In this document: positions 27,145 through 47,720 of the stretch, piece by piece
Layout: each line of letters begins with the position of its first letter
How positions within the stretch are numbered: the first letter of the stretch is position 1
NCBI GenBank assembly: GCA_964547855.1
Contig: CAZJPG010000004.1
Span: 1-54,050 of the forward strand
Direction of reading: 5' to 3'
Source of the DNA: an uncultured Gammaproteobacteria bacterium
GTDB lineage: Bacteria > Patescibacteriota > Patescibacteriia > Patescibacteriales > WJLG01
Length of the DNA stretch: 54,050 nt
Translations under genes and position numbers: made by a program
The notes under the pieces: model-generated
The model's database searches: none
Seen by the model: only the letters and a program-made list of their open reading frames with translations
Told to the model about the DNA's origin: nothing

Positions 27145-27182
27145 TCGTGTTTTATTGTTATTTCAATACTTCTTTTTTTATA

Positions 27183-27220
27183 ACGCCGAACAGCCATTAT
27201 TTGTTCGGCGTTTTGTTTTG
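27183..27220 (+). terminator. Intrinsic terminator after rsmA
   Basis: aacgccgaaca/tgttcggcgtt followed by a T tract. Confidence 0.8.
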
Positions 27221-27285: not shown

Positions 27286-27954
27286 GTGGATATTTTAAAG
27301 AAATTTCGGGCGGAGAATTCTGCCTCGGAAAGCAATCTTAGTAGTAGTCAAAAGCTGGCCGTTTTCGGGCTAGCTATTTTGGGTATAACGACGATGATCT
27401 TTTGGGCGATCGGAATGAAGAATAACATATACCGCCCATTGGAGCCGAAGAGTAATGAGGCATCGAATGCGACTTGCCCGAATGGAAATTGTTCAGGCGT
27501 TGCCGATCAAACGAAATCGCAAGACACGGACCAAGATGGATTGTCGGATTGGGATGAGACTAATGTCTATGGCACGTCTCCATATATAGAAGACACTGAT
27601 AGCGATGGCATAAAAGACGGTGACGAGATCGCTCTTGGCACCGACCCCAATTGTCCTGCTGGGCAGGATTGTTCCGGTGCATCATCTGTTATCGAATCGA
27701 ATGTTACTACTGGCAACACTTCAGAAGATTCGACTATGCCAGATTCTCTTAATTTGAGTAAAGAGCAAGTCGAGGCTAATCAAGATGCGATCAACCAAGC
27801 GTTCACAGGTCAGGCAGATGCCAAAACATTAAGAGAGTTATTGAAAAAATCAGGTATGCCACAAGATATTTTAGATCAGATGACGGATGATCAGATAATG
27901 GCAGCCTATTTATCAACTTTAGAGTCCGCTACTTCCAATCAAACTGGAAATTAA
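27286..27954 (+). CDS. Single-TM protein with bacterial TSP3-like Ca-binding repeats
   Basis: DTDQDGLSDWDE and DTDSDGIKDGDE motifs; N-terminal TM; Cys pairs. Confidence 0.75.
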   Translation: MDILKKFRAENSASESNLSSSQKLAVFGLAILGITTMIFWAIGMKNNIYRPLEPKSNEASNATCPNGNCSGVADQTKSQDTDQDGLSDWDETNVYGTSPYIEDTDSDGIKDGDEIALGTDPNCPAGQDCSGASSVIESNVTTGNTSEDSTMPDSLNLSKEQVEANQDAINQAFTGQADAKTLRELLKKSGMPQDILDQMTDDQIMAAYLSTLESATSNQTGN

Positions 27955-27970: not shown

Positions 27971-30900
27971 ATGAGCCTCAACTCGCACAATCAAAAGAAA
28001 GAGCCTTCCAAAATGAAGAAGCTCTTTTTGGGCGTCTTGGTCGCGGTATTCTCTTTAACTATCGCAACCTCTGCCGCTCCTGCCAATGCTCAAATAAGCA
28101 TTGTTGGATCTATTCCTGAAGTGACGACTAATCTTTTAGACAAGCTAAAAGAAGTATTTTCGACTTTATTAAAGAAGACTGGTTCGGCTTTAATGAATAG
28201 TGCGGTAAAGAATGCGGTCAACACCTTGGCATATGAGGCTGCCAATAAGGTGGGGGCTGGAATGACCGGACAGAAGCCGATGTATGAAGAGAAGGAATGG
28301 GGAGATATTTTTGCCGACACCGGCAATGCTGCTATTGGAGGTTTTATAGATTCCATGGATGAAGTTTGGGGGGTGAATCTTTGTGAACCAGATTTGAGCG
28401 TTAAGCTTAAGATAGGTCTTGGACTCAAGGCTCAATCTGCTCCACCTAAACCAAGTTGCGATTGGCAGACTTTGAGCAAGAATTGGGACATGGAAAAGTT
28501 AAAAGGAGATTTCACCAAAAATTTCGCCGTCACCTTTGAACCGAATAATAGCGATCTTGGGGCTGCTAGATTCTTGCTTAATTCCATGTTAGAGAAGGAA
28601 GCCTCCGAAGTCGCCGATAAAAAATTGGAAACAATGTCCAATCAAGGTTGGTTAAATCCTCGTAACATAGGTGGTATAGCCAAAACCTTTCCTGATAATG
28701 CCAAAATTCAGCTAGAAGGATCCAACCAGGCTTATTGGAATAGTATGGGAAAGGTCACTGGAGATATTTTTACTGACGCCGCTAATGTTTTTTTGAATCA
28801 ATTAGCCATAACGACTTATCAAGGAATAATGGCCAATTTAACGGAAAAGAGTAAGGATAACTCAAACGGATTAGCTGATGCTTCGGCTGATCCTTCGGCT
28901 GGCGGCGGAGCCGCTGGTGTACGTAGTGGTTTGGCTAAGATCGTTGAATCGCGATTCGATAGCCGAGGTGATTATGATATTTTAGGAGAATTGTCGTCTT
29001 GCGCTTCGACTCCAGGTGGTGTCGGGCCGACGAATTGTGTTATCGATGAGCGCATGCGCCAAGCTATAGAGCAAAAAAAGACCGTTGGCCAGGCCTTGAA
29101 AGAAGGTTTGTTAAGGTCTGATGCTCCATTTGGTTTCGTTTCTACTGGCAACGGCTTGGAACCTAACTATCTTGAGGGAATACCGTATCGTTCGATGTTG
29201 ATATTACGTAAATTTAGAATAATACCAGTTGGGTGGGAGTTGGCCGCTCAAAAAATATATAGCAGCAATGATGCTAAAAAGAACGCTTATTTGGGGAAAA
29301 TGGTTGAGTGCTATTCAAAAGATGATGCTTATGAAGGGTACTGGTCCGACTGGTGTAATGGGCTAGTCGACCCGGATTGGGTTTTGAAAGCGCCGCAGAA
29401 TTATTGCGCCAAGGAAGGTTATGGCCCGCAAGTTATCTTTAGCCAAGCCGTAGAGCAGGGATCGGAGAACGTTGTGACAGAGAAAGAAGATGTCGATGGA
29501 GATGGCATTCTTGATACCGAAGATGCTAATGGTAATAAAGTCCTTGATTCAGGAGAGGATATTAATGGTAATGGCGTCTTAGACACGGAGGATGTTAATG
29601 GTAATGGCGTCTTAGATGAAAAAAACGAAATAATTAAGTTGCCGCCAAAATTGATCGTTAATCGCTTGGATGGATATTGTGCCGATGAACAGTCATGTAT
29701 TAAAGAAAAGGCTGATGGTTCTTGTGAATATTATGGTTACTGCACGGAGGAGCGCAGAAAATGGAGTTTTGGTGGTGATTCTTGTGAGCCAGTCTTTAAT
29801 ACCTGCCAGACATTCAAAGGTGAGAAAGGGGAGTCGATCTCTTACTTGAAGAATACCTTGGATTTTTGTGATGCTAGCGACTATGGTTGTGAAAGATATG
29901 CCAAAGCCTCTGTTTTGAGTTATAGCACGACCGCCAAAGCTAATAATTGGTCTAATAACGATGGTTATAGTTATTTCAATAAAAATGCCCAGGAGTGCGA
30001 CGCCGATAATGAGGGCTGCCATGAATTTTTGAGAATAGCTAAGGGTGTTGGTACTAATTTGATCCGTAATTCTGGTTTCGAACAGAACCAGAATAGTGAT
30101 TATTGTACGACGATGTTCTCTGTGGATTGTAGTATATTTTCTCCGGAAGAATCTTCGGCCAGTAATCCTGGAGCTGAGCCAGAGAGATTTTGGCGCATCA
30201 AAAGCCAAGGAGGAGGTGGAGCTATAGCCGACGATGCTCCAGATCGCGGCGGTAATGTTCTTAGAATTAATTCTTCTGTCTCACCGGCCGGTTGGTATTC
30301 TCCAGATAGATCTGCTGGCTCCGATTACTCGGTCTTGCCACAAGGTTTTGTTATGGAGCCAGAGGTCTCTTATACCTTGAGTGCCGACATATACAATATA
30401 GATGCCGATAGAGTTGTTTTGGCCATAGGACGAGAGGGGCAATATTGGGAGGCTAAAGAAATAACGTCTCAAGGTAGCTGGGTTAGGGAGTCGGTCACTA
30501 TAAGAAACAATCAAGATATTTTAGCCAATGAAATAAGGATTTTCGGTTACGGTTCTTCGGGTGTAGCTTTTTATATAGACAATATTAAGTTTGAAATAGG
30601 GAACAAGGCTACGGCTTATAATGATTATCGTCAGAGCAATCTTGTCTACGAAAGACTCTTGCCGATCTATCTTGAGCCGATTTGCTATGTCGATGCCGCC
30701 AATGGCGACTATCGTCTAAAATCAGACGCTCCGACCGAATGCCGTCAATATGCTCGTAAGTGTAATCGTGATGAGGCTAACTGCGAAATGTTCACCTCGA
30801 CGAAGGATGGAGCTAAATTGCCAGCCGCCGTTGGTGATAAGGACTATTGTAGTGCTGAATGCAATGGTTTTGATTCCTATGTTCAGAGCCAAAATAATTT

Positions 30901-33900
30901 TAATTCACGTCAGGCTTTCTACTTTATTCCTAAGACGGCCGCGGTTTGTTCGGCCGCAGATGTGGGTTGCGAAGAATTTACAAACTTGGACAAAAGCGAG
31001 CAGGGTGGCGAGTCGCGTGAGTATTACAGTTATTTAAGGCAGTGCGTTAAACCAAACACTTCTGGCAATACTTGTGCTAGTTTCTATACTTGGGAAGGTA
31101 ATAATGAACAGGGTGAGCAGTTATCTTTGCATAATTTGAAGTCGGACCCCTCTGGAGATGTGTCGTTGACTAGCAGTGATCTCGGACTTTGTAGTGAGAC
31201 CATCTTTAATCTTGCTCCGACCGATCTTGGATATAATCCGGATTGCCGCAAATTCTATAATCAATCCGGTGGGGTCTCGTATCATCTTTATTCCAGAACG
31301 ATTTCTTGTACCGAGGATTGCCACCCTTATAGGATGAGCAATAAGAACGTCGACCCAGCCATAACTTCTTCGGCTGCTTGTACTGGCGCTTCGCGCAGTT
31401 GGGATAGTTCGATCAATGCTTGCCGCTATTGTGAGAACGGTGGGACTTGGAGCAGTGAACATCAGGCTTGTATATATAACGCCACTCCAGGTGAGAGTAC
31501 TGCCTGTTCCGCTTCGGCTAATGGTTGCTCTGAATTCAATGGCAATCAGGGAAATAACGTCAGACAGCTATTGCTGGATACTTTTGAGGCTGGGTCTAAT
31601 TCATGGAATGGTGGAACGGTCATGTCTTCTGCTGTTAGCGGTCTGAAGTCTTATCAAATAACTTCGACCGTCAGCCGTCAAGTCGGGAGGTCTGTTAAAC
31701 AAGGGGGCTCTTATGCCTTGAGTTTTATCGCAAAGCCGACAGGTTCTTCCGATGTCCAAGTAAGTGTTAGTATTGGTAATGGTATGTTGATCGATTCTTT
31801 TAGTGCTAACGCCGAAACAGAGTCATCGGTCACTGCTAAAGCTGACGAGTGGAATCTGTATCAACTCAATCTTCCTGTTTTAAATCACGAAGTCACCGAT
31901 TCAGAGATGTTGATAATAAGCATTTCCGGCGGCGGTGTCTATCTCGACAATATTAAATTGACCGCTATCACCGAACGTTATTATTTAGTCAGAAATTCAT
32001 GGAAGACGCCGGATTCTTGTAATCAGGATGAAAATGGCAAGCCTTATCCTTTGTATATGCTGGGTTGCTCGGAATATAAAGATCGTCTTGGCAATATACA
32101 TTATTTGCATCGTTTCTCTAGACTCTGCCAGGAGTCGGCCGTTGGTTGCGAGGCGATGATCGACACTCAGAATTCCACTAAGCAGTCCAGTGAATATTTC
32201 TCCGCTGGAACTGGTACCTTGGTCCCTTCCGATAGGGTGTCGTATGCTGTCTATGATCCGGATAAGAAATGCAAGAGCACTAGCAAAGGTTGTGAACGCT
32301 TTGGTTTGGCCAAAGAATATCAGAACTCATATACTTATTCCGACGTTTTTATAAAGAATGACCCTGATAAATATTCAAGTACGCTTTGCTCTCAGGAAGG
32401 CGTTGGTTGTAACAAGTGGGCGGCTGCCGATGGTGATTATTATTTCAAGGATCCTGGTGATATGGTCTGTGAGTGGCGCATAGGTAAATTACCAAGCAAG
32501 AGCGCGCCTGATTGGGGCTGGTTCAAGAAGAAGGTCAAGCGTTGCAATGGTACGGATGCAGTTTGTTCGTCTAATCTAGATTGTGCTATCGGGACTTGTC
32601 AGCTTGAGACCACTCCAGATGAGGATTTAGCTTGTCCAGTGTCTAGTCTTAAGACTTTTGGCCAGGGCGGCATGGGTAACGAAGTGTTCCAGCCAGTTGA
32701 GGAGTCTGGGTTTAATTGGGTTGGACTATGTTCTACCGATCAATCTGGCTGTACCGAATATATAGAGCCGGTCAGCGAGTTTTCTTCCAACTTGATATAT
32801 AATGCCGATTTTAGGCAGGATATAGATGGCAATGGTGTCGCCGATGGCTGGACAAGTCCGGCCAATGGTCAGAGCCTGTTCTTGGAGGGAGGAAGTCTCT
32901 ATGCGTTGACGGTCGAGGGGGCGAATATGGCCACTGTCAACGTTTCCTCTCCGACCTTTATGCCATTCCATTTGTTAAGTAGTGATAATTCACTTCTTGA
33001 TCCTATTGGCAGCTTCGTCGTTCATGGCAGTTCAAGCGTGATATTTTATCTTAATAGCAACGCCGAACCAGCGGTGACGGTTTCTAGTAATGACGCCAAT
33101 AATTCTTCTAAGATAATATTAAGAAAAGTCATAACTGACTATCAGCTAACGTCTGATGTGGACAAGAAATCTTGCAATGGAGTCGCCAATGTCGGCAATG
33201 GCTGCGTTTACTTTAATGAGAGATCGGTCGTAGGAGCTTCTGGTCTGTCATCGCTGACCAAGAACGCGTGGTTGGAGTATGGCAAAGAGATAAATGTTGG
33301 CAACCCAGTCAATAATGTCAACCAGCTTATAAAAGTATCGCCTGACCGCGTTTGTAATACTTGGTTGTCATGCAAAACTTACACGAAGGGCGATGACAAT
33401 AAACCAGTCTGTTTCGATATCGCCGAATGCGATCGTTTGGACGCTGGTGGAAATTGCGCCAACTTCAAAGTTATCGAGCCTAATCGGAAGCAAGATCGTG
33501 TCTACGATCCGACCGATCCTACGGCCGAAAATTCCGAGACCGTAAAGAACGCCTCTGGCTATGTTAAGATCGCCTACGCCGGAGTTCCTACTAGTATCTC
33601 GGTTAAGAATTGGCTTCCGAGCGATTACAAGCTTTTTGGCTTGATGGAGCAGGACGGAGAGAAAGTCAATGTCTCCAATGGTAATTTTGAGGACAATATC
33701 AAAGAATTGAATTCTAATAAAAACGGGTTTGTCTATAAGCCAATGGGTTGGTCTCCGGCCAATGCCAATTGGGATTCGTCTTCAATCGGAGGTAGTGGTA
33801 TGTTCCAGGTGATAACCGATCCGTTGTCAGCTCAAAATTTCGGCATAGATTATCCAGCCGAAGGCAGAGCCTTCTTGCAGTATAGTCCGGCCAATTCCGA

Positions 33901-36244
33901 TAACTATCCTTATTCGGATGCGATCAGGATTTCGACTAATAAAGAGTATTATTTAAGTTTTAAGATAAATACTACTAAGCTTTTAGGTGGAAGTTCTAAA
34001 GCTGTCGTTCAGGTCCTTAAACAGAACGGAGACGTGATAGGCGGCTGGGAATTTGGCAGTTCTCTTGATTGGTACGCTACGACCACGGTCTTTACCTCGG
34101 TCGATTCAAATATCGTCCATCTGCGTCTCGGTGCTTCCGGCTCAGCTTTGGGCGGTTACATCTATATCGATGACATAAAGATATCTCCGGTACTGAAGAC
34201 CAAGGAAGATGGAAGCCAATGGCTAGCCAGCCAGTCGTGTAAGCTATATCCGAAAGAGGATTCCTTGTCATGTGATTACTATGATGATGCCGGCATACGC
34301 CTAAAAGGCGATCTTGGCTATTGTCTTGAGTATGATCGCGCCCCTGGAGATCCGAACACTTGTCTCTTGTGGTGGCCGATCGATAAGGTCAGTGGACAGG
34401 GGGAGGGTAAAAAATCGTCTAGCGGGGATGTTAAGGGGTATACTGGTTCAGCACCATTGTTCTATTGTGTGGCAGCTGAAGACAGGAGGCCATATATAGA
34501 TGCCACTCAAGTTTTTTGGTCGGTTGATGAAACTATATCGTTAACTGTTAATGGTGTAAATGTTCTTGGTGGAGAGGTTGGCTACAATAGAGAGGGTGGT
34601 AGAGATGGGCAGTCGGCTATTTATGACGCTGACCCAACAAGATCTGGCATGGTGCCGTTTATGGACAACACAACAATATCTAGTGTGGCAGAAAGAAGAG
34701 TTTATCTTAATCCTGGTGTTAATAATATTTCAGTTACTTTGGACTCTGATGGCGGTGGCGGGGCTACTGTCATGTTGTTTGGCGGTCGATTTGTCTATTG
34801 GAGTTATGGCGGTATTCAGCAAACTGGAGTCTTTAATATTACAAATCAAACCACAGCAAGAACTTCGGAAGTCTCTAATTCTAATTATGGTGGAAACGCT
34901 AGGATTTATAATTGCGAAATTGACAATGGTTCCGGAGACAATGTTGCGATAGATGCGTTTTTCACTGCTGGTAATTTTGACGATGGCAGAAGAAGGCTTG
35001 TGTTTGCTCCTGAAAATGGTGGTAATGAAGATGGTGAGTGTGATTACGGAGGAAGTATAGGCGGTAGAACCGTTACCTTCACCATAACATTGCCAGAGTA
35101 CGGATGCAGAAGCGTAGCCCAGGTTGTTGATCGCAATGGAACGAATAAGGCTTGGGTTGAAAGATTGAAAGAGTCTAGCAAGTATGAAGCTCTGTGCAAT
35201 ACTCAGGCTGGTATGCCATCGTGGGCGAGTAGTTTGAGAATGTATGACAATGCCGAAGGGCGCAATGTGACAATCGCCGCGGCCAATGGTACATGTTCTT
35301 ATAGTGCCAACAATACTCCTTATGGATCGATAACACCTCCGGCCGGAACCGAATTCGAAATGATGTCACCATCGGAATGGGGTAGGATTAATTTAGGTAT
35401 TCCGTTATTGTATAGGTCATCAGGCGCTAATATGGGACAGCTTTATTCGCCGTCGACTTTGAGTTATTTATTCGCTGAGAGCTATGGTGTTTGGGATTGG
35501 GACGATGGTCTTAAAACATATAAAATAAATTATAGCTCAGCCTTGAATTGGTCATCTCCAGCTGATATTTGTACGAATAACGTTCGCCCAACGTCTAATA
35601 ATAATTGTGCTGTTAGACCATCTCTTAGTAATGATAGCGGCGATAGCAATAGCTTGAGACTTAATGGCGGCGCTAATGCTGTGGTTTTGGGTCGTGGTTT
35701 CGTCAACTTAACATTCAACAGTCAAGTGGATTCACAGCAGGCCCCGTTGGTGATGTATGAGGTCGATTGGGGTGATGGTGAGAAGCTGACCGTTTCCGGG
35801 TCAGAGATGAAGGATATGCCTAGCAAGGACTATCCTCACTCTGCTTACCATGCTTATGACTATTGGGATATTTTGGCCAAGAGTAATGCGGCTTTAGTTA
35901 AAGAAAAAATGCCAACAGTTATCTGTAATCCAAAAGACGGCACGCATCCTTGGGATTATTGCACGCTTAAGCCGAAGGTTAAGGTCAAGGATAATTGGGG
36001 TTGGTGCAGCGAGGGTCGTGATGGCGTACCTTGTCCATCGCCTTCGTCGGCTAAATGCATCCTTTCCGGTAATGCTGGTTTGAATGATCCGGCTGCCATT
36101 ACGATGTCTAATTGCAGAAACTATTCAGTGAGCGCTTATGCTAGTAATCCATCAAGGACTTGTCCTTCATCAAGGCCGGTCTGCAGTGATGGTTATTATG
36201 AGACTTCGGGGGAGGTAGTAGTCTATAATTACATAGGAGAATAG
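27971..36244 (+). CDS. Giant (2757 aa) Cys-rich exported protein with CBM-like and Ca-binding modules
   Basis: Signal peptide MKKLFLGVLVAVFSL...ANAQ; DxNGNGVLD repeats; N[LI]..N.[GN]FE CBM4/9-like starts; very high Cys content. Confidence 0.85.
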   Translation: MSLNSHNQKKEPSKMKKLFLGVLVAVFSLTIATSAAPANAQISIVGSIPEVTTNLLDKLKEVFSTLLKKTGSALMNSAVKNAVNTLAYEAANKVGAGMTGQKPMYEEKEWGDIFADTGNAAIGGFIDSMDEVWGVNLCEPDLSVKLKIGLGLKAQSAPPKPSCDWQTLSKNWDMEKLKGDFTKNFAVTFEPNNSDLGAARFLLNSMLEKEASEVADKKLETMSNQGWLNPRNIGGIAKTFPDNAKIQLEGSNQAYWNSMGKVTGDIFTDAANVFLNQLAITTYQGIMANLTEKSKDNSNGLADASADPSAGGGAAGVRSGLAKIVESRFDSRGDYDILGELSSCASTPGGVGPTNCVIDERMRQAIEQKKTVGQALKEGLLRSDAPFGFVSTGNGLEPNYLEGIPYRSMLILRKFRIIPVGWELAAQKIYSSNDAKKNAYLGKMVECYSKDDAYEGYWSDWCNGLVDPDWVLKAPQNYCAKEGYGPQVIFSQAVEQGSENVVTEKEDVDGDGILDTEDANGNKVLDSGEDINGNGVLDTEDVNGNGVLDEKNEIIKLPPKLIVNRLDGYCADEQSCIKEKADGSCEYYGYCTEERRKWSFGGDSCEPVFNTCQTFKGEKGESISYLKNTLDFCDASDYGCERYAKASVLSYSTTAKANNWSNNDGYSYFNKNAQECDADNEGCHEFLRIAKGVGTNLIRNSGFEQNQNSDYCTTMFSVDCSIFSPEESSASNPGAEPERFWRIKSQGGGGAIADDAPDRGGNVLRINSSVSPAGWYSPDRSAGSDYSVLPQGFVMEPEVSYTLSADIYNIDADRVVLAIGREGQYWEAKEITSQGSWVRESVTIRNNQDILANEIRIFGYGSSGVAFYIDNIKFEIGNKATAYNDYRQSNLVYERLLPIYLEPICYVDAANGDYRLKSDAPTECRQYARKCNRDEANCEMFTSTKDGAKLPAAVGDKDYCSAECNGFDSYVQSQNNFNSRQAFYFIPKTAAVCSAADVGCEEFTNLDKSEQGGESREYYSYLRQCVKPNTSGNTCASFYTWEGNNEQGEQLSLHNLKSDPSGDVSLTSSDLGLCSETIFNLAPTDLGYNPDCRKFYNQSGGVSYHLYSRTISCTEDCHPYRMSNKNVDPAITSSAACTGASRSWDSSINACRYCENGGTWSSEHQACIYNATPGESTACSASANGCSEFNGNQGNNVRQLLLDTFEAGSNSWNGGTVMSSAVSGLKSYQITSTVSRQVGRSVKQGGSYALSFIAKPTGSSDVQVSVSIGNGMLIDSFSANAETESSVTAKADEWNLYQLNLPVLNHEVTDSEMLIISISGGGVYLDNIKLTAITERYYLVRNSWKTPDSCNQDENGKPYPLYMLGCSEYKDRLGNIHYLHRFSRLCQESAVGCEAMIDTQNSTKQSSEYFSAGTGTLVPSDRVSYAVYDPDKKCKSTSKGCERFGLAKEYQNSYTYSDVFIKNDPDKYSSTLCSQEGVGCNKWAAADGDYYFKDPGDMVCEWRIGKLPSKSAPDWGWFKKKVKRCNGTDAVCSSNLDCAIGTCQLETTPDEDLACPVSSLKTFGQGGMGNEVFQPVEESGFNWVGLCSTDQSGCTEYIEPVSEFSSNLIYNADFRQDIDGNGVADGWTSPANGQSLFLEGGSLYALTVEGANMATVNVSSPTFMPFHLLSSDNSLLDPIGSFVVHGSSSVIFYLNSNAEPAVTVSSNDANNSSKIILRKVITDYQLTSDVDKKSCNGVANVGNGCVYFNERSVVGASGLSSLTKNAWLEYGKEINVGNPVNNVNQLIKVSPDRVCNTWLSCKTYTKGDDNKPVCFDIAECDRLDAGGNCANFKVIEPNRKQDRVYDPTDPTAENSETVKNASGYVKIAYAGVPTSISVKNWLPSDYKLFGLMEQDGEKVNVSNGNFEDNIKELNSNKNGFVYKPMGWSPANANWDSSSIGGSGMFQVITDPLSAQNFGIDYPAEGRAFLQYSPANSDNYPYSDAIRISTNKEYYLSFKINTTKLLGGSSKAVVQVLKQNGDVIGGWEFGSSLDWYATTTVFTSVDSNIVHLRLGASGSALGGYIYIDDIKISPVLKTKEDGSQWLASQSCKLYPKEDSLSCDYYDDAGIRLKGDLGYCLEYDRAPGDPNTCLLWWPIDKVSGQGEGKKSSSGDVKGYTGSAPLFYCVAAEDRRPYIDATQVFWSVDETISLTVNGVNVLGGEVGYNREGGRDGQSAIYDADPTRSGMVPFMDNTTISSVAERRVYLNPGVNNISVTLDSDGGGGATVMLFGGRFVYWSYGGIQQTGVFNITNQTTARTSEVSNSNYGGNARIYNCEIDNGSGDNVAIDAFFTAGNFDDGRRRLVFAPENGGNEDGECDYGGSIGGRTVTFTITLPEYGCRSVAQVVDRNGTNKAWVERLKESSKYEALCNTQAGMPSWASSLRMYDNAEGRNVTIAAANGTCSYSANNTPYGSITPPAGTEFEMMSPSEWGRINLGIPLLYRSSGANMGQLYSPSTLSYLFAESYGVWDWDDGLKTYKINYSSALNWSSPADICTNNVRPTSNNNCAVRPSLSNDSGDSNSLRLNGGANAVVLGRGFVNLTFNSQVDSQQAPLVMYEVDWGDGEKLTVSGSEMKDMPSKDYPHSAYHAYDYWDILAKSNAALVKEKMPTVICNPKDGTHPWDYCTLKPKVKVKDNWGWCSEGRDGVPCPSPSSAKCILSGNAGLNDPAAITMSNCRNYSVSAYASNPSRTCPSSRPVCSDGYYETSGEVVVYNYIGE
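29555..29620 (+). repeat. 33-bp tandem duplication encoding Ca-binding loops
   Basis: gaggat(a/g)ttaatggtaatggcgtcttaga x2, encoding ED[IV]NGNGVLD. Confidence 0.85.
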
Positions 36245-36275
36245 AATTTTATAGTCAGTATATTTTCAAGAATAG

Positions 36276-36312
36276 AATCCCCTTGGTCGATCAAAAGACT
36301 GAGGGGATTTAT
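36276..36312 (+). terminator. Terminator after the giant gene
   Basis: aatcccct/aggggatt followed by a T-rich tract. Confidence 0.7.
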
Positions 36313-36543: not shown

Positions 36544-37860
36544 ATGCGTAACGTATTATTGACCCTGTTGTCGTTGGCCTTGGTAGCCAACGTTATGTCA
36601 GCGGAGAATGTTAATGTTGATTTTTTCACTTCTTCGAACTGGATAAAGTCTGCTGGTGTTAACATGAACAATGAATATAATTATCCGAAAAGCTCGCACC
36701 CTTTTCGCAATGAGGAGTGGATTTCTGCGACTACCAATATTTATTCAGTGTCTTCTTCCAGCAACTTTGAGGTTTTGGATCATTTCCTTCTTCCCTCTGA
36801 CATGCCATCTAATTATCAAGCGGTGTTCGAATTCGCTTTCGACAATTTTGGTAATATTTGGATGGCTCATCACGAGGGCGTTACTCGGTATAATGAAAAG
36901 ACCAAGACCTGGAAGCATTATACTGACCTTGGTTTGGGAAGTCAGGCTCGGGCTCGTCGCATTCAGTACGACAGCAAGCACAAAAAGCTTATGGTCGGAA
37001 CGATCGACGGTTTCGTCTCAGCAACGATCAATCCTGACGGCTCCGTGGCTAGTTGGAATAAGATGCTTCCTGACAGCACCGATAAGACGGTCCACTGCAT
37101 CGGTTATTATAACGATGAAATGTGGGCCCAGAATACCAAGAATATTTACCATTATGTCGATGGCAAATGGACTGGATATTCAGCTGAGGACCTTGGTGCT
37201 GTGACATTCGTTCGGCCGGCCACTGCCTTTGTGGATAAGAATGGTGATTGCTGGACAGCTGTCATGGATACTGAGATCGTATTCAATTCGAAGTATCGAT
37301 TGGCTAAATTTGAACATTCTTCCGGTTCTTGGAAGAGCGTTCAGGTCGAGGGTGTCGATGAGTGGGATCCGCATAGTGCTGAAACGCATCGTATGGCTAA
37401 CGGAATATATTCGATCGCCATCGATAGAAATGGTGTTATGTGGTTGTCTGGCGTCTGGAGCTTGATGAAGGTAAACGACCTTGCAGCTTCGAAATTGACC
37501 GTAAAGTACATGACCAAGTGGGATAATGGTGACTTGCTGAACACCGATTATGTCATTCTCGGCCTTAATCCGGCCAGTGGATTGAAGGTATCGGCTCGCA
37601 AGCAGATAGAAGATACCACCGGTCTTGGAGCGTATTACGCTTCAGTATCGTCGGTTCGCCAGCCATTCATTCGAAACTTGACCATTGCTCGCAACAAAGG
37701 TCAGCAGTACATCGGCACTTTTTCGCTCGATGGTCGTCGAATCGCCAAGTCCAATCCAGCACTTTCGGCCGGAAATTATCTTCAGATGTTCCGGACGGCA
37801 GAGGGGCAAAATAGTATTGTCAAAGTTATGAGTTTGACCGCCAATCCTTCTCATAATTAA
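36544..37860 (+). CDS. Secreted beta-propeller (Reg_prop-like repeats) with a T9SS/Fibrobacter-like C-terminal tail
   Basis: AAGGAG SD; signal peptide; repeats FDNFGNIW, VDKNGDCW, IDRNGVMW; tail TFSLDGRRI...LSAGNYL. Confidence 0.7.
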   Translation: MRNVLLTLLSLALVANVMSAENVNVDFFTSSNWIKSAGVNMNNEYNYPKSSHPFRNEEWISATTNIYSVSSSSNFEVLDHFLLPSDMPSNYQAVFEFAFDNFGNIWMAHHEGVTRYNEKTKTWKHYTDLGLGSQARARRIQYDSKHKKLMVGTIDGFVSATINPDGSVASWNKMLPDSTDKTVHCIGYYNDEMWAQNTKNIYHYVDGKWTGYSAEDLGAVTFVRPATAFVDKNGDCWTAVMDTEIVFNSKYRLAKFEHSSGSWKSVQVEGVDEWDPHSAETHRMANGIYSIAIDRNGVMWLSGVWSLMKVNDLAASKLTVKYMTKWDNGDLLNTDYVILGLNPASGLKVSARKQIEDTTGLGAYYASVSSVRQPFIRNLTIARNKGQQYIGTFSLDGRRIAKSNPALSAGNYLQMFRTAEGQNSIVKVMSLTANPSHN

Positions 37861-38164: not shown

Positions 38165-38800
38165 ATGCCCCAGACCGGCAGTGTAGACATCGATCTGATG
38201 CAGAAAAAGCGGCTTAGTTCCTTAGAGGAACAGAACCGGGCGGCCAATGAATTAAGGGATGCTCGGCGTTCTTCTGTTGCCGGATCAGTGAATGAGGAAA
38301 AAGGAATGACTCTGCGCCAGCAGGTCATAGCTGCGCGTAAACAACTTGCCGGTGCGGCTAAGAATGCTCGAAAAACATCCAGTGGTATGGGGGCCGTTAA
38401 AGGCCCTAATAAAGCCAAGATGGGGACAGCCCAGCTTCTTAAAGCGGCCTGGATAAACGTCATAGATAGTTTTGGCGCTACTTTGCTCTATATCAATTTT
38501 CATGCCTTTGCTCGCCTGATTCCTGGGTTGCGTAACGTATTCTGTCGTTTGGGCGAAGAGTGGTTGCCTAAAGGAACTTCGGCATCGATGCCGGGTCTTG
38601 AGGACAAGATAGCTAAGGTCGGTTTATTAGAGAAGATGTTGCTTGCCGTCGTTGATGCCATACTTTTAGCTGCGCTTTTGGTCGTTGTCGCGCTTTTCAT
38701 TATAATCGTCAATATGTTTTTTGCTAGTTGGAAAGAGAGAGTTGAGACTATATTTGAAAATTGGGAGCTTTTCAAAGAGCTAGTTAAATTGCTCGGATAA
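38165..38800 (+). CDS. Hypothetical membrane protein
   Basis: Basic N-terminal half with hydrophobic C-terminal segments; 2 nt from the next gene. Confidence 0.7.
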   Translation: MPQTGSVDIDLMQKKRLSSLEEQNRAANELRDARRSSVAGSVNEEKGMTLRQQVIAARKQLAGAAKNARKTSSGMGAVKGPNKAKMGTAQLLKAAWINVIDSFGATLLYINFHAFARLIPGLRNVFCRLGEEWLPKGTSASMPGLEDKIAKVGLLEKMLLAVVDAILLAALLVVVALFIIIVNMFFASWKERVETIFENWELFKELVKLLG

Positions 38801-38802
38801 AA

Positions 38803-41325
38803 ATGCTCGATTTTATAAAAAACAAATTTCAATCGTTAACGAAGAACAAGAAGACTGTCGTGTCTTTTTGTTTGGTTTTTGTTTTATTCGCTTTATTGGT
38901 ATGGTTTGGGACCGATGTTGTTTGGGCGGCATCAAATGATAATAACATTGCCGCTGGTGAGAAGACGGCTGGGATCATAGCTATAATCATAAGTACGATC
39001 GCCGGGTGGTTGATAAATATTTTTGGTGCTATTTTTTCGTCTATTTTGAACGTGGTCGTGGCCGTTGCTAATTACAATGATTTCTCCAATGCCCAGGCAA
39101 TAGTTCTTGGCTGGGTGGTCGTACGCGATATTTGCAACATGTTCTTTATACTGATCTTGTTGGTCATAGCCTTCGCCGTGATATTGCGTATCGATGGATA
39201 TGATGTCAAAAAAATGATCCCGAAGTTGCTGATCATGGCTGTGTTGATAAATTTTTCCAGAACGATCTGTGGTTTGATAATCGATGCGGCTCAAGTAGTG
39301 ATGTTGACCTTTATTCATAGTATAAAGGGGATGGGCGGTCATTTGGTGGACATGTTTGGAATTAAGGATTATCAGACGTTCAGTAAGGACAGTAAGGGAA
39401 ACCCGAATTCCGGACAGATAGTCGTTGCCTCTGTTTTGGCTATAATTTTCATGTTGATAGCTACGGTTGTCGTTATTGCTTTGTTGGGAGTATTGGTCAT
39501 GAGAATAATCATGCTTTGGATATATGTCACTTTGTCGCCGTTGGCGTTTTTCTTAGCCTCGTTTCCGCAGGGAAAGAAATATTCTCAAAAATGGTGGAGT
39601 GAATTTTCCGAGAACGTTATCGTCGGCCCAGTTTTGGCATTTTTCCTTTGGCTTTCTTTTGCCACTTTGGGAAGCGTCACCGATGGCAGCAAATTGTTAG
39701 GACCAGATGTAGATCTTTCCAGCGGTTCGCCAAGTGGTTTAACAGGCATACTTTCCGGCTCTAATGTCATGAAATTCGCTATATCCATCGGCATGCTTTT
39801 AGGTGGCTTAATGATATCGTCTAGCATGGCCGGAGCGGCTGGAGGGTTTGCTGGTAAAGCCATGGGCAAGATACAGGCCGGCGCTGCTTGGACTAAACGC
39901 AAAACTTTGGGTGCGGCAAAAACAGCCGCAGTGGCTACTGGTGGGGCGGCTTTGGGTGTGGCAGCTGTCACTGGTAAGTCACTCGATCGTTTTGGTGGGG
40001 GGATGGTAAATGCTGGCTTGAAAAAAGCAGGTTTGTCCAAGGGGAATAATAGCATATTGGCCGACCGTGGATTGATTGGTGGGAGTTTTTCTGCAGTTAG
40101 GGGTGGAACTTCCAATCTCATGGCTAAAGTGAAAGAGACTATCTCTAAAAACAGGACATTGAATGATGATATATACCAATCTCAATTTAATAAGGACGGC
40201 ATAGTTGAGCATAGAGGAGAAAAATATAAAGTTAATAGCTCTGGAGAGTATCAACGCATAGATGATAAAGGAAATCATGTTTCACCAACCGAAGCCAATG
40301 CTTTCTTGACCAATGCTGACGGTAAGAGAGTGAAGAAAGGCGCCATGAATAGCTTTGCCATCCAAGCCTTTAAGAGGTCGATGAGAGAGGCTACTTCTGG
40401 TTCAAGGGCAGCCTCCAACGCTCTTGAGGAAAAAAATATTGAAGAGGCCAAAAATAAGATCAAAACATCTGGCATGTCTAATGAAGAGGCGCGTCGTCGT
40501 ATGGAAAGCTCCGGGACCACTGCTATCGAGAAAAAGGCTTTGGTTATGCATTTGGCTGAAGAGAAAGGCTTTGAGAGCATAGACCAAAGAGAAAGAGCTC
40601 AAAAAATCCTTGGCGGCAACGAGTCATTGGTTAAAAAATTCGGTGATACGGTGGTCAAAAATCAGGTTCATTTGGCATATAATTTGAACGCCGTGGACAA
40701 AAAAGGTAATCCTGACACTGATAAGCGCGCGCTGGAGCGAAATAGAATGATGAAAGATTTGTCCAAGAATAATATTGATGTGCGTAATTTGTCGAAAGAG
40801 GCTATTGGGGACACGGCCTTCATGGATGCGGTTCATGACTGGGCCGGTGATTCCAAATTCTCCAATATTATGAAGGCCAACGCTGAGGCGGGTGGCAAAA
40901 AGAATCAGGAGAATGTCGTCAATGCTTTGTCTAGAAAAGTTGACAGAACAAAACTAAAGACAGATAAATTCGCAAAGATTCAAGCTGATATAAGCGGCGA
41001 TCTTTCTCTGGCATTCAATTTGCAAAACGATGGAAAAGGTGGAGTTGATACTGCTGCCGTAGCTCAATATTTGGCGACCGCGAAACCAAAGCAGCTCGAA
41101 TCAATTGACAATGATGCTATGGATAAATTAATGAATGTTTTATCTGGTTCACAGAGAACCGGAATACAGAATGCTATAGGAAAGAGTGTGTCGTATGCTC
41201 AAATAAAAAGCATATATAAATCTGGTAATCAAGAATTAGCCAAACGTCTCAAAGATGATATTCTTAATATTGGAGGCAACGCAGCCGTTGATATTCGTGG
41301 AGATGCTGAATTGATGTCGCTTTAA
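38803..41325 (+). CDS. TrbL/VirB6-like T4SS membrane protein with a long soluble C-terminal extension
   Basis: GWVVVRDICNMFFILILL.IAFAVIL, LLIMAVLINFSRTI...IIDAAQ, R.IMLW...LSPLAF; Gly/Ala-rich linker. Confidence 0.75.
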   Translation: MLDFIKNKFQSLTKNKKTVVSFCLVFVLFALLVWFGTDVVWAASNDNNIAAGEKTAGIIAIIISTIAGWLINIFGAIFSSILNVVVAVANYNDFSNAQAIVLGWVVVRDICNMFFILILLVIAFAVILRIDGYDVKKMIPKLLIMAVLINFSRTICGLIIDAAQVVMLTFIHSIKGMGGHLVDMFGIKDYQTFSKDSKGNPNSGQIVVASVLAIIFMLIATVVVIALLGVLVMRIIMLWIYVTLSPLAFFLASFPQGKKYSQKWWSEFSENVIVGPVLAFFLWLSFATLGSVTDGSKLLGPDVDLSSGSPSGLTGILSGSNVMKFAISIGMLLGGLMISSSMAGAAGGFAGKAMGKIQAGAAWTKRKTLGAAKTAAVATGGAALGVAAVTGKSLDRFGGGMVNAGLKKAGLSKGNNSILADRGLIGGSFSAVRGGTSNLMAKVKETISKNRTLNDDIYQSQFNKDGIVEHRGEKYKVNSSGEYQRIDDKGNHVSPTEANAFLTNADGKRVKKGAMNSFAIQAFKRSMREATSGSRAASNALEEKNIEEAKNKIKTSGMSNEEARRRMESSGTTAIEKKALVMHLAEEKGFESIDQRERAQKILGGNESLVKKFGDTVVKNQVHLAYNLNAVDKKGNPDTDKRALERNRMMKDLSKNNIDVRNLSKEAIGDTAFMDAVHDWAGDSKFSNIMKANAEAGGKKNQENVVNALSRKVDRTKLKTDKFAKIQADISGDLSLAFNLQNDGKGGVDTAAVAQYLATAKPKQLESIDNDAMDKLMNVLSGSQRTGIQNAIGKSVSYAQIKSIYKSGNQELAKRLKDDILNIGGNAAVDIRGDAELMSL

Positions 41326-41337: not shown

Positions 41338-42441
41338 ATGAATATTTTTCAACAAAAATTGAATAAATTACCAAAAGAAGTGGCGTCGTTTTTGGTATCA
41401 ATGGAGGCTGTTAAGCTGAATAAGGAGGTTTGTGGTAAATATGGATTAAAAGGCGACCAGGTGGACAAATATGTTAATTTAGTCAGTTCTCTATTTTTTA
41501 AAGAGGTTTCTTTAGATGAGCTCGTGAAGACTGTGTCTTCTTTGTTTGGTTTTGATAATTTCAAGGCTAATGAGATGTCGAAGGACATTGCTGGTATTAG
41601 GCTTTTGGTTGTAAAAGATTGGGTTGCCGGAGTTAAGGAGTATATTGAATCACTGAATGGAAAAATTGAAGATTATGCGCCTTACGTTGAGAGACAAAAA
41701 AAGGCTCTAGAAGATGAGGACAAGTTCTTCAAAGAGGCAATGGCTGAAGAGTCTCTGGATGATCAAAAAGACTCTGATAAAGAAAAAGATTCTGCGGTTA
41801 ATCGCAGTGTTGTCGAATTTGATATTACAAAGGAAAAAAATGACAGTGTTAATAATTTTAAAGAATCTGTTTTAGAGTTGCTGGATTCAGACAACGAGCC
41901 TTTAGCTGATGAGTATAATGGTATTTTGCTGCAAGTTCTTATCGATGGCGGTGTTTCCGCTAAGGTCGATTTGGAAAAAGCTTTGTATGAGAATCAAGAA
42001 CGTTTGACCTCGGCCCCATTCATGCTTGATGGCAAAGTGTCTTCTGGTACTGTTGCTAATTGGATAAAATATTTTATCTCTATAAAAGGCACAGGGATTT
42101 TTGATAATATAGTTTTGTCTTCGTTCTTAGTCCAGTCACCTAACGCCAAGGCTTTGAGCGAAGTAGAAAAATCTCGTTTGCGCAAATTGCTGCTCTTGTA
42201 TCGTAATTTGAAATTTTTTCCGGAAAGCATGCCGAATAATACCGGCGAAGGTTGGGAGATAATACCTACACAGGTCACCGAAGAAGTCCAAAGAGAGGTT
42301 AAGGTCGTTCAAGAGAAGAAGGATTCTGAAAATGAAAAAAAGATCCAAGAGTTGCGAGCGACTCTAGCTAAATATCCAGAAGGAAGTTTGGCCAGAAGGG
42401 CCGTGGAAGAGGAGATCAAGAGAGTAAAAAGTCAAAAGTAG
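41338..42441 (+). CDS. Hypothetical protein
   Basis: 367-aa ORF within the operon; N-terminus KLNKLPKEV..FLVS.E. Confidence 0.75.
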   Translation: MNIFQQKLNKLPKEVASFLVSMEAVKLNKEVCGKYGLKGDQVDKYVNLVSSLFFKEVSLDELVKTVSSLFGFDNFKANEMSKDIAGIRLLVVKDWVAGVKEYIESLNGKIEDYAPYVERQKKALEDEDKFFKEAMAEESLDDQKDSDKEKDSAVNRSVVEFDITKEKNDSVNNFKESVLELLDSDNEPLADEYNGILLQVLIDGGVSAKVDLEKALYENQERLTSAPFMLDGKVSSGTVANWIKYFISIKGTGIFDNIVLSSFLVQSPNAKALSEVEKSRLRKLLLLYRNLKFFPESMPNNTGEGWEIIPTQVTEEVQREVKVVQEKKDSENEKKIQELRATLAKYPEGSLARRAVEEEIKRVKSQK

Positions 42442-42525
42442 AAGTAGAGAATTTGTTTTTTGATATTAATAAGAGAACTTTTGATTTCACGATAAGTCTA
42501 TTCATTTTTAACTTTTAACTTTTTA
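42425..42525. repeat. Inverted heptamer-like repeats
   Basis: aaaagtc-aaaagta-gaagta ... tttaact-tttaact-tttt. Confidence 0.5.
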
Positions 42526-42534
42526 TTTAATACT

Positions 42535-43917
42535 GTGCTTGAATACCTTGATAAATTCACTAAGTTGCCGGCAGATATTCAACAGAAGGCTTCCAGCCAG
42601 GAGGTCCTTTTAGCGTTAGATGAGTTATCTTCTCGCTATAATGTCGATCTAGCATCCTTTGTCATGAGGGTGATGGTCGGCGATTTGATGTATCGCAATA
42701 TGCTGGCTAGCTTGATCAAGGAATTCGACATGGAGCTCGATCAAGCCGAATTGCTGGAGGCCGAGCTTCGTGATCGTGTCTTTAAGAAGGTACAGGATTA
42801 TTTGCTTGGCACAGCCAAGCCAGAGCCAGCCACTGAAGAAGAAATTAAGGAAGTCGAAACTGTCGTCGAAAAGGCCGAGAAAGAGGAAATAAATATTAAA
42901 AAGTTGCCAGAAGGTGAGGAAGAGAAGCTTTTAATGGCCCCTAAAAATGATCTAGATGAAAAGAAAGTAAAAAGTGTTCCGGTTGAAAAACCGTTAGTCG
43001 CCGAAGAAGAGAAAGAGATAACTGAAATTAAGAAAAAAATGCCAGTTGGCCAAGAAACCGAGGCCGACAGGTATTCCCGCGTAGCGGCTGATGTCCTTGA
43101 GGAGTCTGGCCTTAATATGCCAAGCGAAGGATTGAATTTGCGTTTCAAGCAGATAATGATCACATATCTTAAGGGTATACGTACGAAGATCGAGACCAGA
43201 GAGACGATGACTAAACCAGTTATAAGTGGTGGTCTTAATCTTGATAATCCGGAAGTAGAGAGAATTATCGCTATTGCCAATAAAAAATTAGCTGAAGAGA
43301 ATAAGAGGGCTCCTTTGGGAAAAGTTAAAATAGAGGAAGGCCCATCAGGATTCGTCTTTAAGAAAGAAGAAATAGCCGAAGCCTTGGGTAAAGTTCCTCC
43401 AAAACCTAAGGATGAAAAAGGAATGACCATGACTGGCGAGGAATATGATTTGGCAGCAGAGATAAAGAAGGGTAATGTTTCCGCTTCAGCGTCAGCTTCC
43501 GCGTCGACCCCAAAACAACAACCAGAGACCACACAAAGGAAGGCGAAGGTAGTCGGTGGAAAAAAGGCCATGGACGATATCAAGACGCCGCAGATAATGA
43601 GTCCGATAGACGAACTGGCCTATATGGATCTTGTCACCTTCCGTCGATTAGATAGTGACCCAGTGCGACGTTGTAAAAAGATAGAGGATAAAATCGGTCT
43701 TTTGGCCAAGGAGGGCATCGATCGCCAGCTTGAAGGTATCAAAGCCTGGCGCTTGAATCCGGTAAATAAAACTTACATATCAATGGGTCAGGATAGTATA
43801 ACGCAAGGCAAGGGGATTGATGATATAATAGTTGACCTTAAGAACAAAGGCTTTAATTATCTGACTAGGGTCGAATTCGAGGCGATAATGGATCTTAATA
43901 ATAGATTGCGATTTTAA
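42535..43917 (+). CDS. Hypothetical protein
   Basis: GTG start; N-terminus KFTKLPADI..KASS.E; low-complexity linker; stop overlaps the prgI ATG. Confidence 0.75.
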   Translation: MLEYLDKFTKLPADIQQKASSQEVLLALDELSSRYNVDLASFVMRVMVGDLMYRNMLASLIKEFDMELDQAELLEAELRDRVFKKVQDYLLGTAKPEPATEEEIKEVETVVEKAEKEEINIKKLPEGEEEKLLMAPKNDLDEKKVKSVPVEKPLVAEEEKEITEIKKKMPVGQETEADRYSRVAADVLEESGLNMPSEGLNLRFKQIMITYLKGIRTKIETRETMTKPVISGGLNLDNPEVERIIAIANKKLAEENKRAPLGKVKIEEGPSGFVFKKEEIAEALGKVPPKPKDEKGMTMTGEEYDLAAEIKKGNVSASASASASTPKQQPETTQRKAKVVGGKKAMDDIKTPQIMSPIDELAYMDLVTFRRLDSDPVRRCKKIEDKIGLLAKEGIDRQLEGIKAWRLNPVNKTYISMGQDSITQGKGIDDIIVDLKNKGFNYLTRVEFEAIMDLNNRLRF

Positions 43918-44372
43918 TGCAAATGTTCACTGTTCCGCAGTTCATAGACGCGGAAGACAAAATAATAGGAGCGATGACGGTTAGGCAATTCGTTATTTGC
44001 CTAGCTGGTGTGGCCGTGATCGGAATTGGTTGGAAAATATTCGATTTTTCTTTGTTTGTCGTTTGGGGTATTGGTAATTTAGCGGTGTTTGGAGCTTTTG
44101 CTTTTGTTAAAGTCAATGGTCGCCCTTTTCATTATTTTGTGTTGAATGTGGTCCAGACATCAAAAAAACCACGCTTAAGAGTTTGGAATCATAGAAATCC
44201 TTTGAAGGACGTGGTGTCTTCGGAGGACGACAAGGGAGAGGCCGTTCACACTGCAGCCAAGGTCGTTCCAGTGAAGCCTCATCCAGCGGGGTCGCGTTTG
44301 AGAGAACTTTCTTTGATCGCCGACACCAAGGGTGCCTATAAGGGTGGAGAGGGCGAAGAGATAGTCGAATAA
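43917..44372 (+). CDS. PrgI-family (VirB3-like) protein
   Basis: F.VPQFIDAEDKIIG.MTVRQF, two TMs, K.NGRPF. Confidence 0.85.
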   Translation: MQMFTVPQFIDAEDKIIGAMTVRQFVICLAGVAVIGIGWKIFDFSLFVVWGIGNLAVFGAFAFVKVNGRPFHYFVLNVVQTSKKPRLRVWNHRNPLKDVVSSEDDKGEAVHTAAKVVPVKPHPAGSRLRELSLIADTKGAYKGGEGEEIVE

Positions 44373-44405
44373 TTTAAAAAAGGAAAGTCAAATTATATTG
44401 TTTCT

Positions 44406-45092: not shown

Positions 45093-45126
45093 ATATAGGC
45101 GTTACGCTTTTTGCGTTACGTGTTAT

Positions 45127-47717: not shown

Positions 47718-47720
47718 TAG

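Follow-up and report, generated by a model that had tools for sequence, protein, structure and literature searches.

PrgB, the adhesin of pCF10-type (MPF-FATA) conjugation systems, is a large Sec-exported surface protein encoded together with a monoderm-type type IV secretion system (T4SS; that is, with PrgI, VirB4 and a VirB6-like protein), and its presumed role is to make or stabilize the cell–cell contact for the channel. TraN of F-type conjugation is a Cys-rich (22 conserved Cys), extracytoplasmic mating-pair-stabilization protein encoded in a T4SS operon; its variable regions set recipient specificity and it relies on disulfide isomerases encoded in the same operon (thioredoxin-like TrbB, TraF). 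Patescibacteria account for a large share of bacterial diversity, and those members that have been studied are attached to host cells. The T4SS is essential in the single lineage of this group that is open to genetics, and its role has been called ‘completely unknown’ (PMC11665869); a 2025 survey of Patescibacteria T4SSs detected no PrgB-like adhesin and mentions no giant gene (PMC12102498). Within a tiny genome, Vampirococcus lugosii encodes giant surface proteins of 1,392–4,163 aa that have been proposed to recognize and hold the host (PMC8080830). Here we analyse a 54,050-nt stretch of DNA (hereafter the window; contig CAZJPG010000004.1 of assembly GCA_964547855.1, positions 1 to 54,050, forward strand), which is filed under an uncultured Gammaproteobacteria bacterium and placed by GTDB in the Patescibacteriota, and in particular its by far longest open reading frame (ORF; 27971..36244, +), which encodes a Cys-rich protein (hereafter the giant) beside a T4SS gene cluster.

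We suggest that the giant is a Sec-exported, disulfide-stapled modular surface fibre of an ABY1-type T4SS locus that mediates contact with the host surface, a reading that we favour and to which we give about an even chance. It builds on the gene and its family, a Cys framework, the folds of two modules (M2 and M4), a pattern of variability and a genomic linkage. The ORF comprises 2757 aa, or 2743 aa if read from the ATG at 28013; this internal codon (Met15) is also where the public gene call (P0001, 2743 aa) has its start, a purine-rich stretch lies 5′ of it, and the first ATG (27971) is surrounded by pure A/T. On these grounds the ATG at 28013 is the probable true start, and we give the length as 2743–2757 aa.

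Three features that had been predicted from this ORF alone (that is, a signal peptide, richness in Cys and the lack of an LPxTG or C-terminal transmembrane anchor) are all borne out. A single hydrophobic segment (aa 15–38) is followed by P-A-N-A and then Q, resembling a signal peptidase I site, and hydropathy and the A-x-A rule (both heuristic) delineate a probable Sec signal peptide (MKKLFLGVLVAVFSLTIATSAAPANA, followed by Q; 28013..28090, +) with the tripartite n-h-c layout expected of Sec signals (KK, a 19-residue hydrophobic core and P-A-N-A before Q). In an alignment of 116 full-length family members, which also gives the occupancy and column-identity values below, 112 have the N-terminal hydrophobic segment, none has a C-terminal transmembrane segment and one contains an LPxT[GAS] string; in the giant itself, scans of sequence and motifs revealed neither a second transmembrane segment nor an LPxTG, and its N-terminus has no lipobox. 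The giant has 82 Cys (3.0%), and the spacing C-x6-C occurs 13 times against ~2.4 expected from composition, with 9 of the 13 fitting a common frame, [YF]-x5-8-C-x3-[DENS]-x-G-C-x-[EK]-[FYW].

A word-indexed search with the giant returned 408 relatives, the best 120 of which are nearly all 2,300–3,000 aa long (E=0), derive without exception from Patescibacteria, Parcubacteria or Falkowbacteria metagenome-assembled genomes (MAGs) and are all named ‘hypothetical’, about half of them with a precomputed CBM_4_9 match. Searching a profile of the N-terminal domain (N-domain) against 1.84 billion representatives gave 1,683 matching proteins (representative clusters) at E<=1e-3, of which 1,070 reach E<=1e-30; among the 150 best listed, the domain always stands at the N-terminus of a giant of 2–3 kaa or of a fragment of one. 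We found no description of the family in the literature. The metagenomes in which the sequence is present come from several studies and represent wastewater, bioreactors and anaerobic digesters. Across the 116 aligned members the scaffold (aa 50–2170) is conserved and ~60 of the 82 Cys show no or almost no variation, with total Cys counts ranging from 71 to 155. As a separate observation on nomenclature, many third-party annotation (TPA) MAG records that carry the Patescibacteria giant locus are titled ‘uncultured Gammaproteobacteria bacterium’ (L006, L009, L010, L015, L018, L030 and others), and short contigs with fragments of the giant gene are filed as Gastranaerophilales, Zixiibacteriota or Methylomirabilis (L022, L055; P0014); such labels are probably placeholders or reflect mis-binned contigs.

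Much of the giant is a succession of beta modules (M1–M4) and Cys-rich spacers, the latter recognized by Cys pattern and conservation. Spacer 1 (aa 565–690, 10 Cys; 29663..30040, +) ends in a C-x6-C-x-E-F hairpin before M1 (aa 696–880; 30056..30610, +), a jelly roll resembling those of carbohydrate-binding module (CBM) families 4 and 9 that occupies a variable, swappable slot, as judged from hhalign and column occupancy. Spacer 2 (aa 898–1195, 20 Cys; 30662..31555, +) leads to M2 (aa 1197–1340; 31559..31990, +), a CBM4/9/16-like jelly roll identified through Pfam matches in homologs and a profile match in the PDB, and spacer 3 (aa 1344–1600, 16 Cys and four C-x6-C hairpins; 32000..32770, +) leads to M3 (aa 1607–1725; 32789..33145, +), a beta module that begins with a CBM-type signature and for which AlphaFold2 (AF2) predicts strands at a predicted local distance difference test (pLDDT) value of ~75. 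Spacer 4 (aa 1735–1835, 7 Cys; 33173..33475, +) is conserved and modelled with low confidence; it precedes M4 (aa 1900–2080; 33668..34210, +), a CBM4/22-like jelly roll assigned from Pfam matches in homologs, PDB matches and an AF2 model (pLDDT 75–88). Spacer 5 (aa 2088–2170; 34232..34480, +), the most conserved short stretch of the giant, served as probe in the genome scan described below. Given that three of the jelly rolls each have a C-x6-C-x-E-[FY] hairpin 10–15 residues upstream, the repeating unit can be described as Cys-rich spacer, hairpin and beta module.

The four CBM4/9-like starts that had been predicted at nt 30056, 31560, 32790 and 33670 (aa 696, 1197, 1607 and 1900) coincide with these four modules; the likeness to CBM4/9 stands for M1, M2 and M4 on profiles and fold, and for M3 it comes down to the start signature. 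In profile–profile comparison with hhalign, M1 is related to M2 (97.6%, E=1e-11) and to M4 (94%), the M2–M4 relationship is weaker (81%, local), and M3 has no detectable homology to the other three, sharing with them only an N-x-D-F...W start; BLAST self-comparison found no internal repeats, so the kinship of M1, M2 and M4 is seen only by profile–profile comparison. In homologs, Pfam CBM_4_9 scores 29.3 and 32.4 bits on M2 (P0003 and P0025; cutoff 25.9), CBM_4_9_1 (PF22637; ‘BppA domain 1’) falls on M4 (for example, 26.3 bits in P0048 against a cutoff of 27), and in P0025 a Laminin_G_3 domain fills the M1 slot. A family profile searched against the PDB matched CBM16 2zez with M2 (E=9e-4) and CBM4 1gui with M4 (E=0.016), and nothing else. 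The original prediction had proposed an AlphaFold and Foldseek check, which recovered CBM4-2, CBM16 and CBM22 folds at E ~1e-6 and template-modelling (TM) scores of ~0.7: the AF2 model of aa 1560–2757 has an overall pLDDT of 61.8 and a predicted TM-score (pTM) of 0.59, with the beta modules at 70–88, and its Foldseek matches include 2y6k (CBM4-2; E=9.7e-7, target TM-score 0.71), 2zex (CBM16), 4xup (CBM22) and 1gui (CBM4), the last three at E ~1e-6 and target TM-scores of ~0.7. The CBM4-2 match presumably belongs to M4, judging from the aligned length, as the query range is not reported. The jelly-roll fold is thus superposable on solved CBM4/16/22 modules (Foldseek; module pLDDT 75–88), and the top matches in a library of viral folds are phage host-specificity, tail-fibre, minor-tail and CBM-CenC proteins.

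The same fold search also returned the receptor-binding regions of Cry1Ac, Vip3A and CDTb/iota-Ib, which, together with a neighbouring T4SS for which no substrate is known, could be taken to mean that the giant is a toxin-like cargo or effector delivered to or into the host, its jelly rolls recognizing receptors in the manner of Cry, Vip3 and binary toxins. We consider this highly improbable, as these matches combine long alignments with low TM-scores and stem from beta-sandwich modules common to both sides, Pfam, NCBIfam and PDB searches found no pore-forming or enzymatic toxin domain, and a classical Sec signal and ~80 Cys of extracellular type are incompatible with a VirB4-driven cytoplasmic route. 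For the same reasons (that is, the Sec signal and the extracellular-type, disulfide-forming Cys content), passage of the giant through the T4SS appears unlikely, and the original prediction of export with the adjacent T4SS is not upheld. Nor is that of a tip filament, as the giant has no similarity to VirB2 or VirB5 and there is no evidence of polymerization; Pfam, NCBIfam and PDB searches found no match between the giant and VirB/Trb/Tra/Prg families (VirB1–VirB11, VirD4).

Variability is concentrated in two places. One is the M1 slot (aa 700–880), with an occupancy of 0.34–0.75, and the other is a hypervariable region (aa 2171–2445; 34481..35305, +) in which column identity falls to 0.08–0.37, occupancy to 0.22–0.65 and BLAST coverage from ~115 to ~15 of 119 homologs. 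No diversity-generating retroelement or other diversifying element was seen near the giant, and the sole match resembling a reverse transcriptase (12068–12637) is an RNase H/RVT_3 domain. Conservation resumes at aa 2450–2690 in a C-terminal beta domain (35318..36040, +; AF2 model beta-rich, pLDDT ~75–85) characterized by P-x-x-x-N-[IV]-x-V-N ... GFVNLTFNS-x-VDSQQ-x-PLV-x-Y-x-VDWGDG, followed by PHS-x-YH-x-Y ... C-x-x-KP-x-VK-x-KDNWGW. The YEVDWGDG segment had been called PKD-like; the motif is present and conserved, but no Pfam family, including PKD (PF00801 and PF18911), matched any of five C-terminal segments at E<=10, and no PKD structure appeared either with the family profile against the PDB or among the top 50 Foldseek matches. 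The best PDB sequence match of the domain is a designed immunoglobulin domain (E=0.013). PKD likeness of the C-terminus is best treated as a lead rather than a finding.

At the opposite end, the N-domain (aa ~80–495; 28208..29455, +) is the most conserved part of the giant, with seven invariant Cys and invariant D334, R407, K414 and E423. Its AF2 model is mostly helical (pLDDT 57 overall, 80–90 for aa ~355–475), it has no Pfam, NCBIfam or PDB sequence match, and Foldseek against the PDB gave nothing below E=3; on this basis it appears to be a novel domain. These features bear on another explanation, in which the giant is a secreted or surface enzyme: a novel catalytic N-domain would, for example, degrade the wall or host envelope in the role of VirB1, which most of these loci leave unfilled, and the CBM modules would target it to polysaccharide. 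CBM4/9/16/22 modules, the type matched in the PDB, are typically attached to glycoside hydrolases, the acidic and basic invariant residues of the N-domain would suit a catalytic site, and in most Patescibacteria classes virB4 seldom has a VirB1 homolog linked to it (PMC12102498). We nevertheless consider an enzyme unlikely: the N-domain resembles no Pfam, NCBIfam or PDB family in sequence or fold, its predicted fold consists mainly of long helices unlike the known compact hydrolase folds, and some 2,200 further residues of non-catalytic scaffold with a hypervariable distal region fit adhesins or receptor-binding proteins better.

Directly after the N-domain lies an insertion (aa 501–553; 29471..29629, +; occupancy 0.03) with four acidic loops of the form D-x-[DN]-G-[DN]-G (aa 505–550), which had been predicted as Ca-binding loops. 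The four repeats are there, but they have no Pfam support (no TSP3_bac match, PF18884, on the giant) and the insertion occurs in only ~3% of the 116 homologs. Contigs aligned to the window came only from related strains, and one of them (run X13) omits exactly this insertion (29472–29632). The insertion resembles the TSP3 repeats of the protein encoded upstream of the giant (TSP3p, below) and looks like a recent, lineage-specific acquisition.

The adjacency to T4SS genes that had been noted in the window is confirmed by the assignment of VirB6/TrbL, PrgI, TrsD-like and VirB4 genes downstream of the giant. The original prediction had named the lack of such linkage in relatives as the outcome that would speak against it, and the linkage holds. 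Looked up by exact protein, four homologs of four lie in the order TSP3p–giant–p211–VirB6–p367, in which p211 and p367 are the proteins encoded on either side of VirB6. Scanning a single genome for each GTDB species with the spacer 5 probe returned 57 loci, which were processed by ORF calling and phmmer with the window proteins. VirB6 is encoded 3′ of the giant in 40 of the 41 loci that extend 4 kb or more beyond it (median gap 1.1 kb, usually containing p211), TSP3p lies 5′ of it in 34 of 37 species loci, and PrgI–TrsD–VirB4 are contiguous downstream in at least 18. Across loci, the median identity to the window proteins is 37% (giant), 36% (TSP3p), 34% (p211) and 41% (VirB6), against 62% for TrsD and 74% for VirB4, which suggests that the giant evolves at the pace of the envelope-exposed parts of the T4SS.

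For the reverse comparison, metagenome contigs were scanned with a VirB4 probe and then with the family hidden Markov model, counting p211–VirB6 loci with at least 1.3 kb upstream. The C-terminus of a giant lies beside p211–VirB6 in 10 of 17 loci; the other 7 have neither an adjacent giant nor TSP3p, and encode upstream of p211–VirB6 GroEL, a class II aminoacyl-tRNA synthetase, Ddl, a methyltransferase, an NYN-domain gene or an ABC ATPase. The linkage therefore holds from giant to VirB6 and is not reciprocal, and the T4SS does not require an adjacent giant; the TSP3p–giant pair appears to be inserted upstream of the p211–VirB6 module in many lineages, not in all. The giant-less loci (L083, L093, L103, L104, L106, L111 and L114) have very similar VirB4 proteins (73–80% identity), and either are variants without a giant or encode it at another genomic site.

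Such linkage counts could arise from conserved gene order alone, given that leuS and ksgA are frequent and likewise conserved upstream neighbours. The giant could accordingly be a structural protein, of general envelope or S-layer type, in ABY1-class cells, and its place beside VirB6 an inherited order with no functional coupling to the T4SS; the 7 of 17 related T4SS loci without an adjacent giant and the terminator-like hairpins that flank the TSP3p–giant pair in the window would also fit this. Four observations make us regard it as quite unlikely. At least seven loci lack ksgA upstream of TSP3p (in L005, PheRS stands in place of LeuRS/KsgA), and the giant keeps p211–VirB6–p367 despite the changed upstream genes. 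It also keeps them when the VirB4 half sits elsewhere, as in ~8 loci in which the cluster breaks after p367 and metabolic genes come next; such persistence under rearrangement argues for a functional module. The 40-of-41 adjacency is maintained among giants that are only ~35–40% identical, and hypervariable regions favour partner recognition over a lattice protein. Independently of this question, many relatives have a split T4SS, with TSP3p–giant–p211–VirB6–p367 and p460–PrgI–TrsD–VirB4–p214–RadA–RecG at separate locations (L005/L010, L012–L014, L024, L034, L037; L065, L075, L079, L080, L085).

For a T4SS-associated surface fibre, the following sequence of events can be envisioned. The signal peptide would send the giant to the Sec machinery and be cut after A-N-A. 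Outside the membrane, its ~80 Cys (of which ~60 are invariant) would be oxidized by MdbA/DsbA-type thioredoxins, two of which are encoded in the window, to give rigid, disulfide-bonded spacers. Because the giant has no covalent or transmembrane anchor, we propose that the helical N-domain docks to co-encoded membrane proteins and so holds the giant at the cell via TSP3p and/or p211 together with VirB6, as the strict gene adjacency suggests. The three CBM4/9/16/22-type jelly rolls, the fourth beta module, the hypervariable region and the C-terminal domain would project from the cell and bind host-envelope glycans, with the swappable M1 slot and the hypervariable region (as their folds and variability suggest) fixing host specificity. 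The fibre would thereby set the membrane channel of the T4SS against the host, without the giant itself being a T4SS substrate; its function would be comparable to that of monoderm conjugation adhesins or of a phage receptor-binding protein. We infer the role in host attachment, which the original prediction had also assigned to the giant, from its lectin-type jelly rolls, swappable slot, hypervariable region, Sec signal and likeness to phage host-specificity proteins.

Several points weigh against this reading. The window protein itself has nothing significant in Pfam or NCBIfam, its best match being CBM_4_9 (PF02018; aa 1221–1273) at 12.5 bits against a cutoff of 25.9 (E=0.19). Folds of the CBM type are normally found together with enzymes, which makes a catalytic role of the N-domain conceivable. 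Docking through the N-domain starts from a poor model (pLDDT 57) of a domain with no structural relatives. To these can be added the leuS and ksgA neighbours, the seven VirB6 loci that have neither giant nor TSP3p and, in the window, terminator-like and promoter-like sites (pattern matches) that part the giant from the T4SS genes. The run search listed no RNA run with the giant's sequence. A bolder version of the T4SS connection would make the giant the missing extracellular part of the Patescibacteria T4SS, with N-domains assembled on VirB6, p211 and TSP3p and the disulfide-stapled rod forming a bridge or conduit through the epibiont envelope to the host surface; it would replace the pilus and the outer-membrane core that monoderm-type systems lack, and its distal variable modules would choose the host. 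This we hold to be very unlikely, and we retain the surface fibre as the favoured reading.

TSP3p, encoded directly 5′ of the giant (222 aa; 27286..27954, +), is membrane-anchored, with an N-terminal transmembrane segment (aa 23–45), TSP3_bac repeats of the Ca-binding type (Pfam, 32.8 bits against a cutoff of 25), four Cys and a conserved C-terminal helical tail; it is 35% identical to its counterpart in L003. A terminator-like hairpin after ksgA (27182..27212, +; 12-bp stem and T run, pattern match) is a possible 5′ boundary of the TSP3p–giant unit, and another (36275..36310, +; 14-bp stem, pattern match) lies 30 nt past the giant stop, such that TSP3p and the giant may form their own transcription unit in this genome; in other genomes the gap between the giant and p211 is only ~25 nt. 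In the window this gap contains a gene for a secreted 438-aa protein (36544..37860, +) with a signal peptide and a weak Reg_prop (beta-propeller) match. Promoter-like sites at 36411–36439 and 38086–38113 and a terminator-like hairpin at 37883–37914 are further pattern matches in this interval, and the propeller-like gene has promoter-like and terminator-like sites of its own. It is a lineage-specific insertion, shared with the closest relative (L006), in part with L027 and with no other locus.

The T4SS cluster proper starts with p211 (38165..38800, +), a small protein with a C-terminal transmembrane segment that accompanies VirB6 with or without a giant. VirB6 (840 aa; 38803..41325, +) is a VirB6/TrbL-like polytopic membrane protein with ~8 transmembrane segments, for which Pfam TrbL matches at E=7e-5, below cutoff, and TrbL_3 is recorded on its orthologs. 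The acidic cytoplasmic proteins p367 and p460 (41338..43917, +), both conserved in the cluster, are followed by PrgI (VirB3-like), the TrsD/TraC-like protein and the VirB4 ATPase (43917..47037, +). We considered a ‘split VirB4’ (44406–45092 and 45127–47037) and rejected it: T4SSs of this class normally contain a TrsD/TraC-like gene, and the 228-aa ORF is that gene, a reading taken from PMC12102498; the VirB4–RadA–RecG context likewise agrees with the description of class ABY1 there. After VirB4 come p214 (47073–47717), with a membrane anchor and an extracellular domain, and a transmembrane-anchored DsbA/MdbA-like thioredoxin (47721–48464; together 47073..48464, +), then RadA and RecG. A second transmembrane-anchored DsbA/MdbA-like thioredoxin is encoded at 17262–17924 (−), and MdbA-like oxidoreductases are enriched in the candidate phyla radiation (CPR; bioRxiv 10.1101/335083). 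As a dedicated conserved partner of the giant, the DsbA-like protein was rejected: it follows p214 in 4 of 50 VirB4-centred loci, the usual order being VirB4–p214–RadA–RecG.

Three further observations concern other genes of the window. p214 has a single N-terminal transmembrane segment and a soluble domain of ~170 aa and directly follows VirB4 in nearly all related loci, a position and topology that would suit a VirB8-like component; such a component was rarely found in the 2025 survey (PMC12102498). A 409-aa ORF (13726–14955, −) matches Pfam T4SS_pilin (PF18895) at 29.6 bits against a cutoff of 26.6 and is a possible candidate for a VirB2-like pilin-domain protein; it lies ~13 kb away from the T4SS cluster, amid genes for pyruvate:ferredoxin oxidoreductase subunits (12784–13713, 15112–16320, 16419–16682 and 16695–17255). 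An 899-aa protein (2113–4812, +) fuses CoA_binding, Succ_CoA_lig and ATP-grasp_5 domains (that is, an ADP-forming acyl-CoA synthetase-like part) to a C-terminal GNAT acetyltransferase, which is the architecture of Pat-type protein lysine acetyltransferases.

This family of more than 1,000 representative clusters, so far unannotated, is a testable candidate for coupling host recognition to secretion in ABY1-class cells, and if this is true, host range would have its natural metagenomic markers in the hypervariable region and the swappable lectin slot. Set against the known systems, the giant is like PrgB in being large, probably Sec-exported and encoded next to a T4SS cluster of monoderm type (VirB6 downstream in 40 of 41 species loci), but it is twice the size, has ~80 Cys and CBM-type instead of PrgB-type adhesin domains, shows no sequence similarity to PrgB and lacks an LPxTG sortase anchor or C-terminal transmembrane segment. 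TraN differs as an outer-membrane protein of diderms of ~600 aa with no detectable homology to the giant, whose DsbA-like neighbour is facultative (4 of 50 loci). With phage receptor-binding and tail-fibre proteins (for example, BppA of lactococcal phage Tuc2009), the giant shares a chain of beta-sandwich or jelly-roll domains with a conserved proximal and a variable distal part, CBM_4_9_1 (‘BppA domain 1’) matches M4 of giant homologs and such proteins head the viral fold search; the resemblance is modular only, given a global TM-score of ~0.1, and the giant gene is cellular and chromosomal, lies in a T4SS context with no phage genes nearby, and encodes a signal peptide and Cys-rich spacers. 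From CBM families 4, 9, 16 and 22 (CenC-type), whose jelly-roll fold and N-G-x-F-E ... Y-x-D-[DN]-I frame recur in M1, M2 and M4, it differs in having no attached glycoside hydrolase; the window modules score below the Pfam threshold and carbohydrate binding is a prediction. V. lugosii likewise exemplifies the very large exported proteins of CPR episymbionts, but no T4SS linkage is described for its proteins, which contain WD40, PKD, integrin or fibronectin-type domains; the giant family is set apart by an N-domain and a Cys framework of its own and by its constant position next to VirB6. Surface adhesins associated with T4SSs or with episymbionts are thus already known as a kind; the N-domain and the Cys scaffold of the giant are new.

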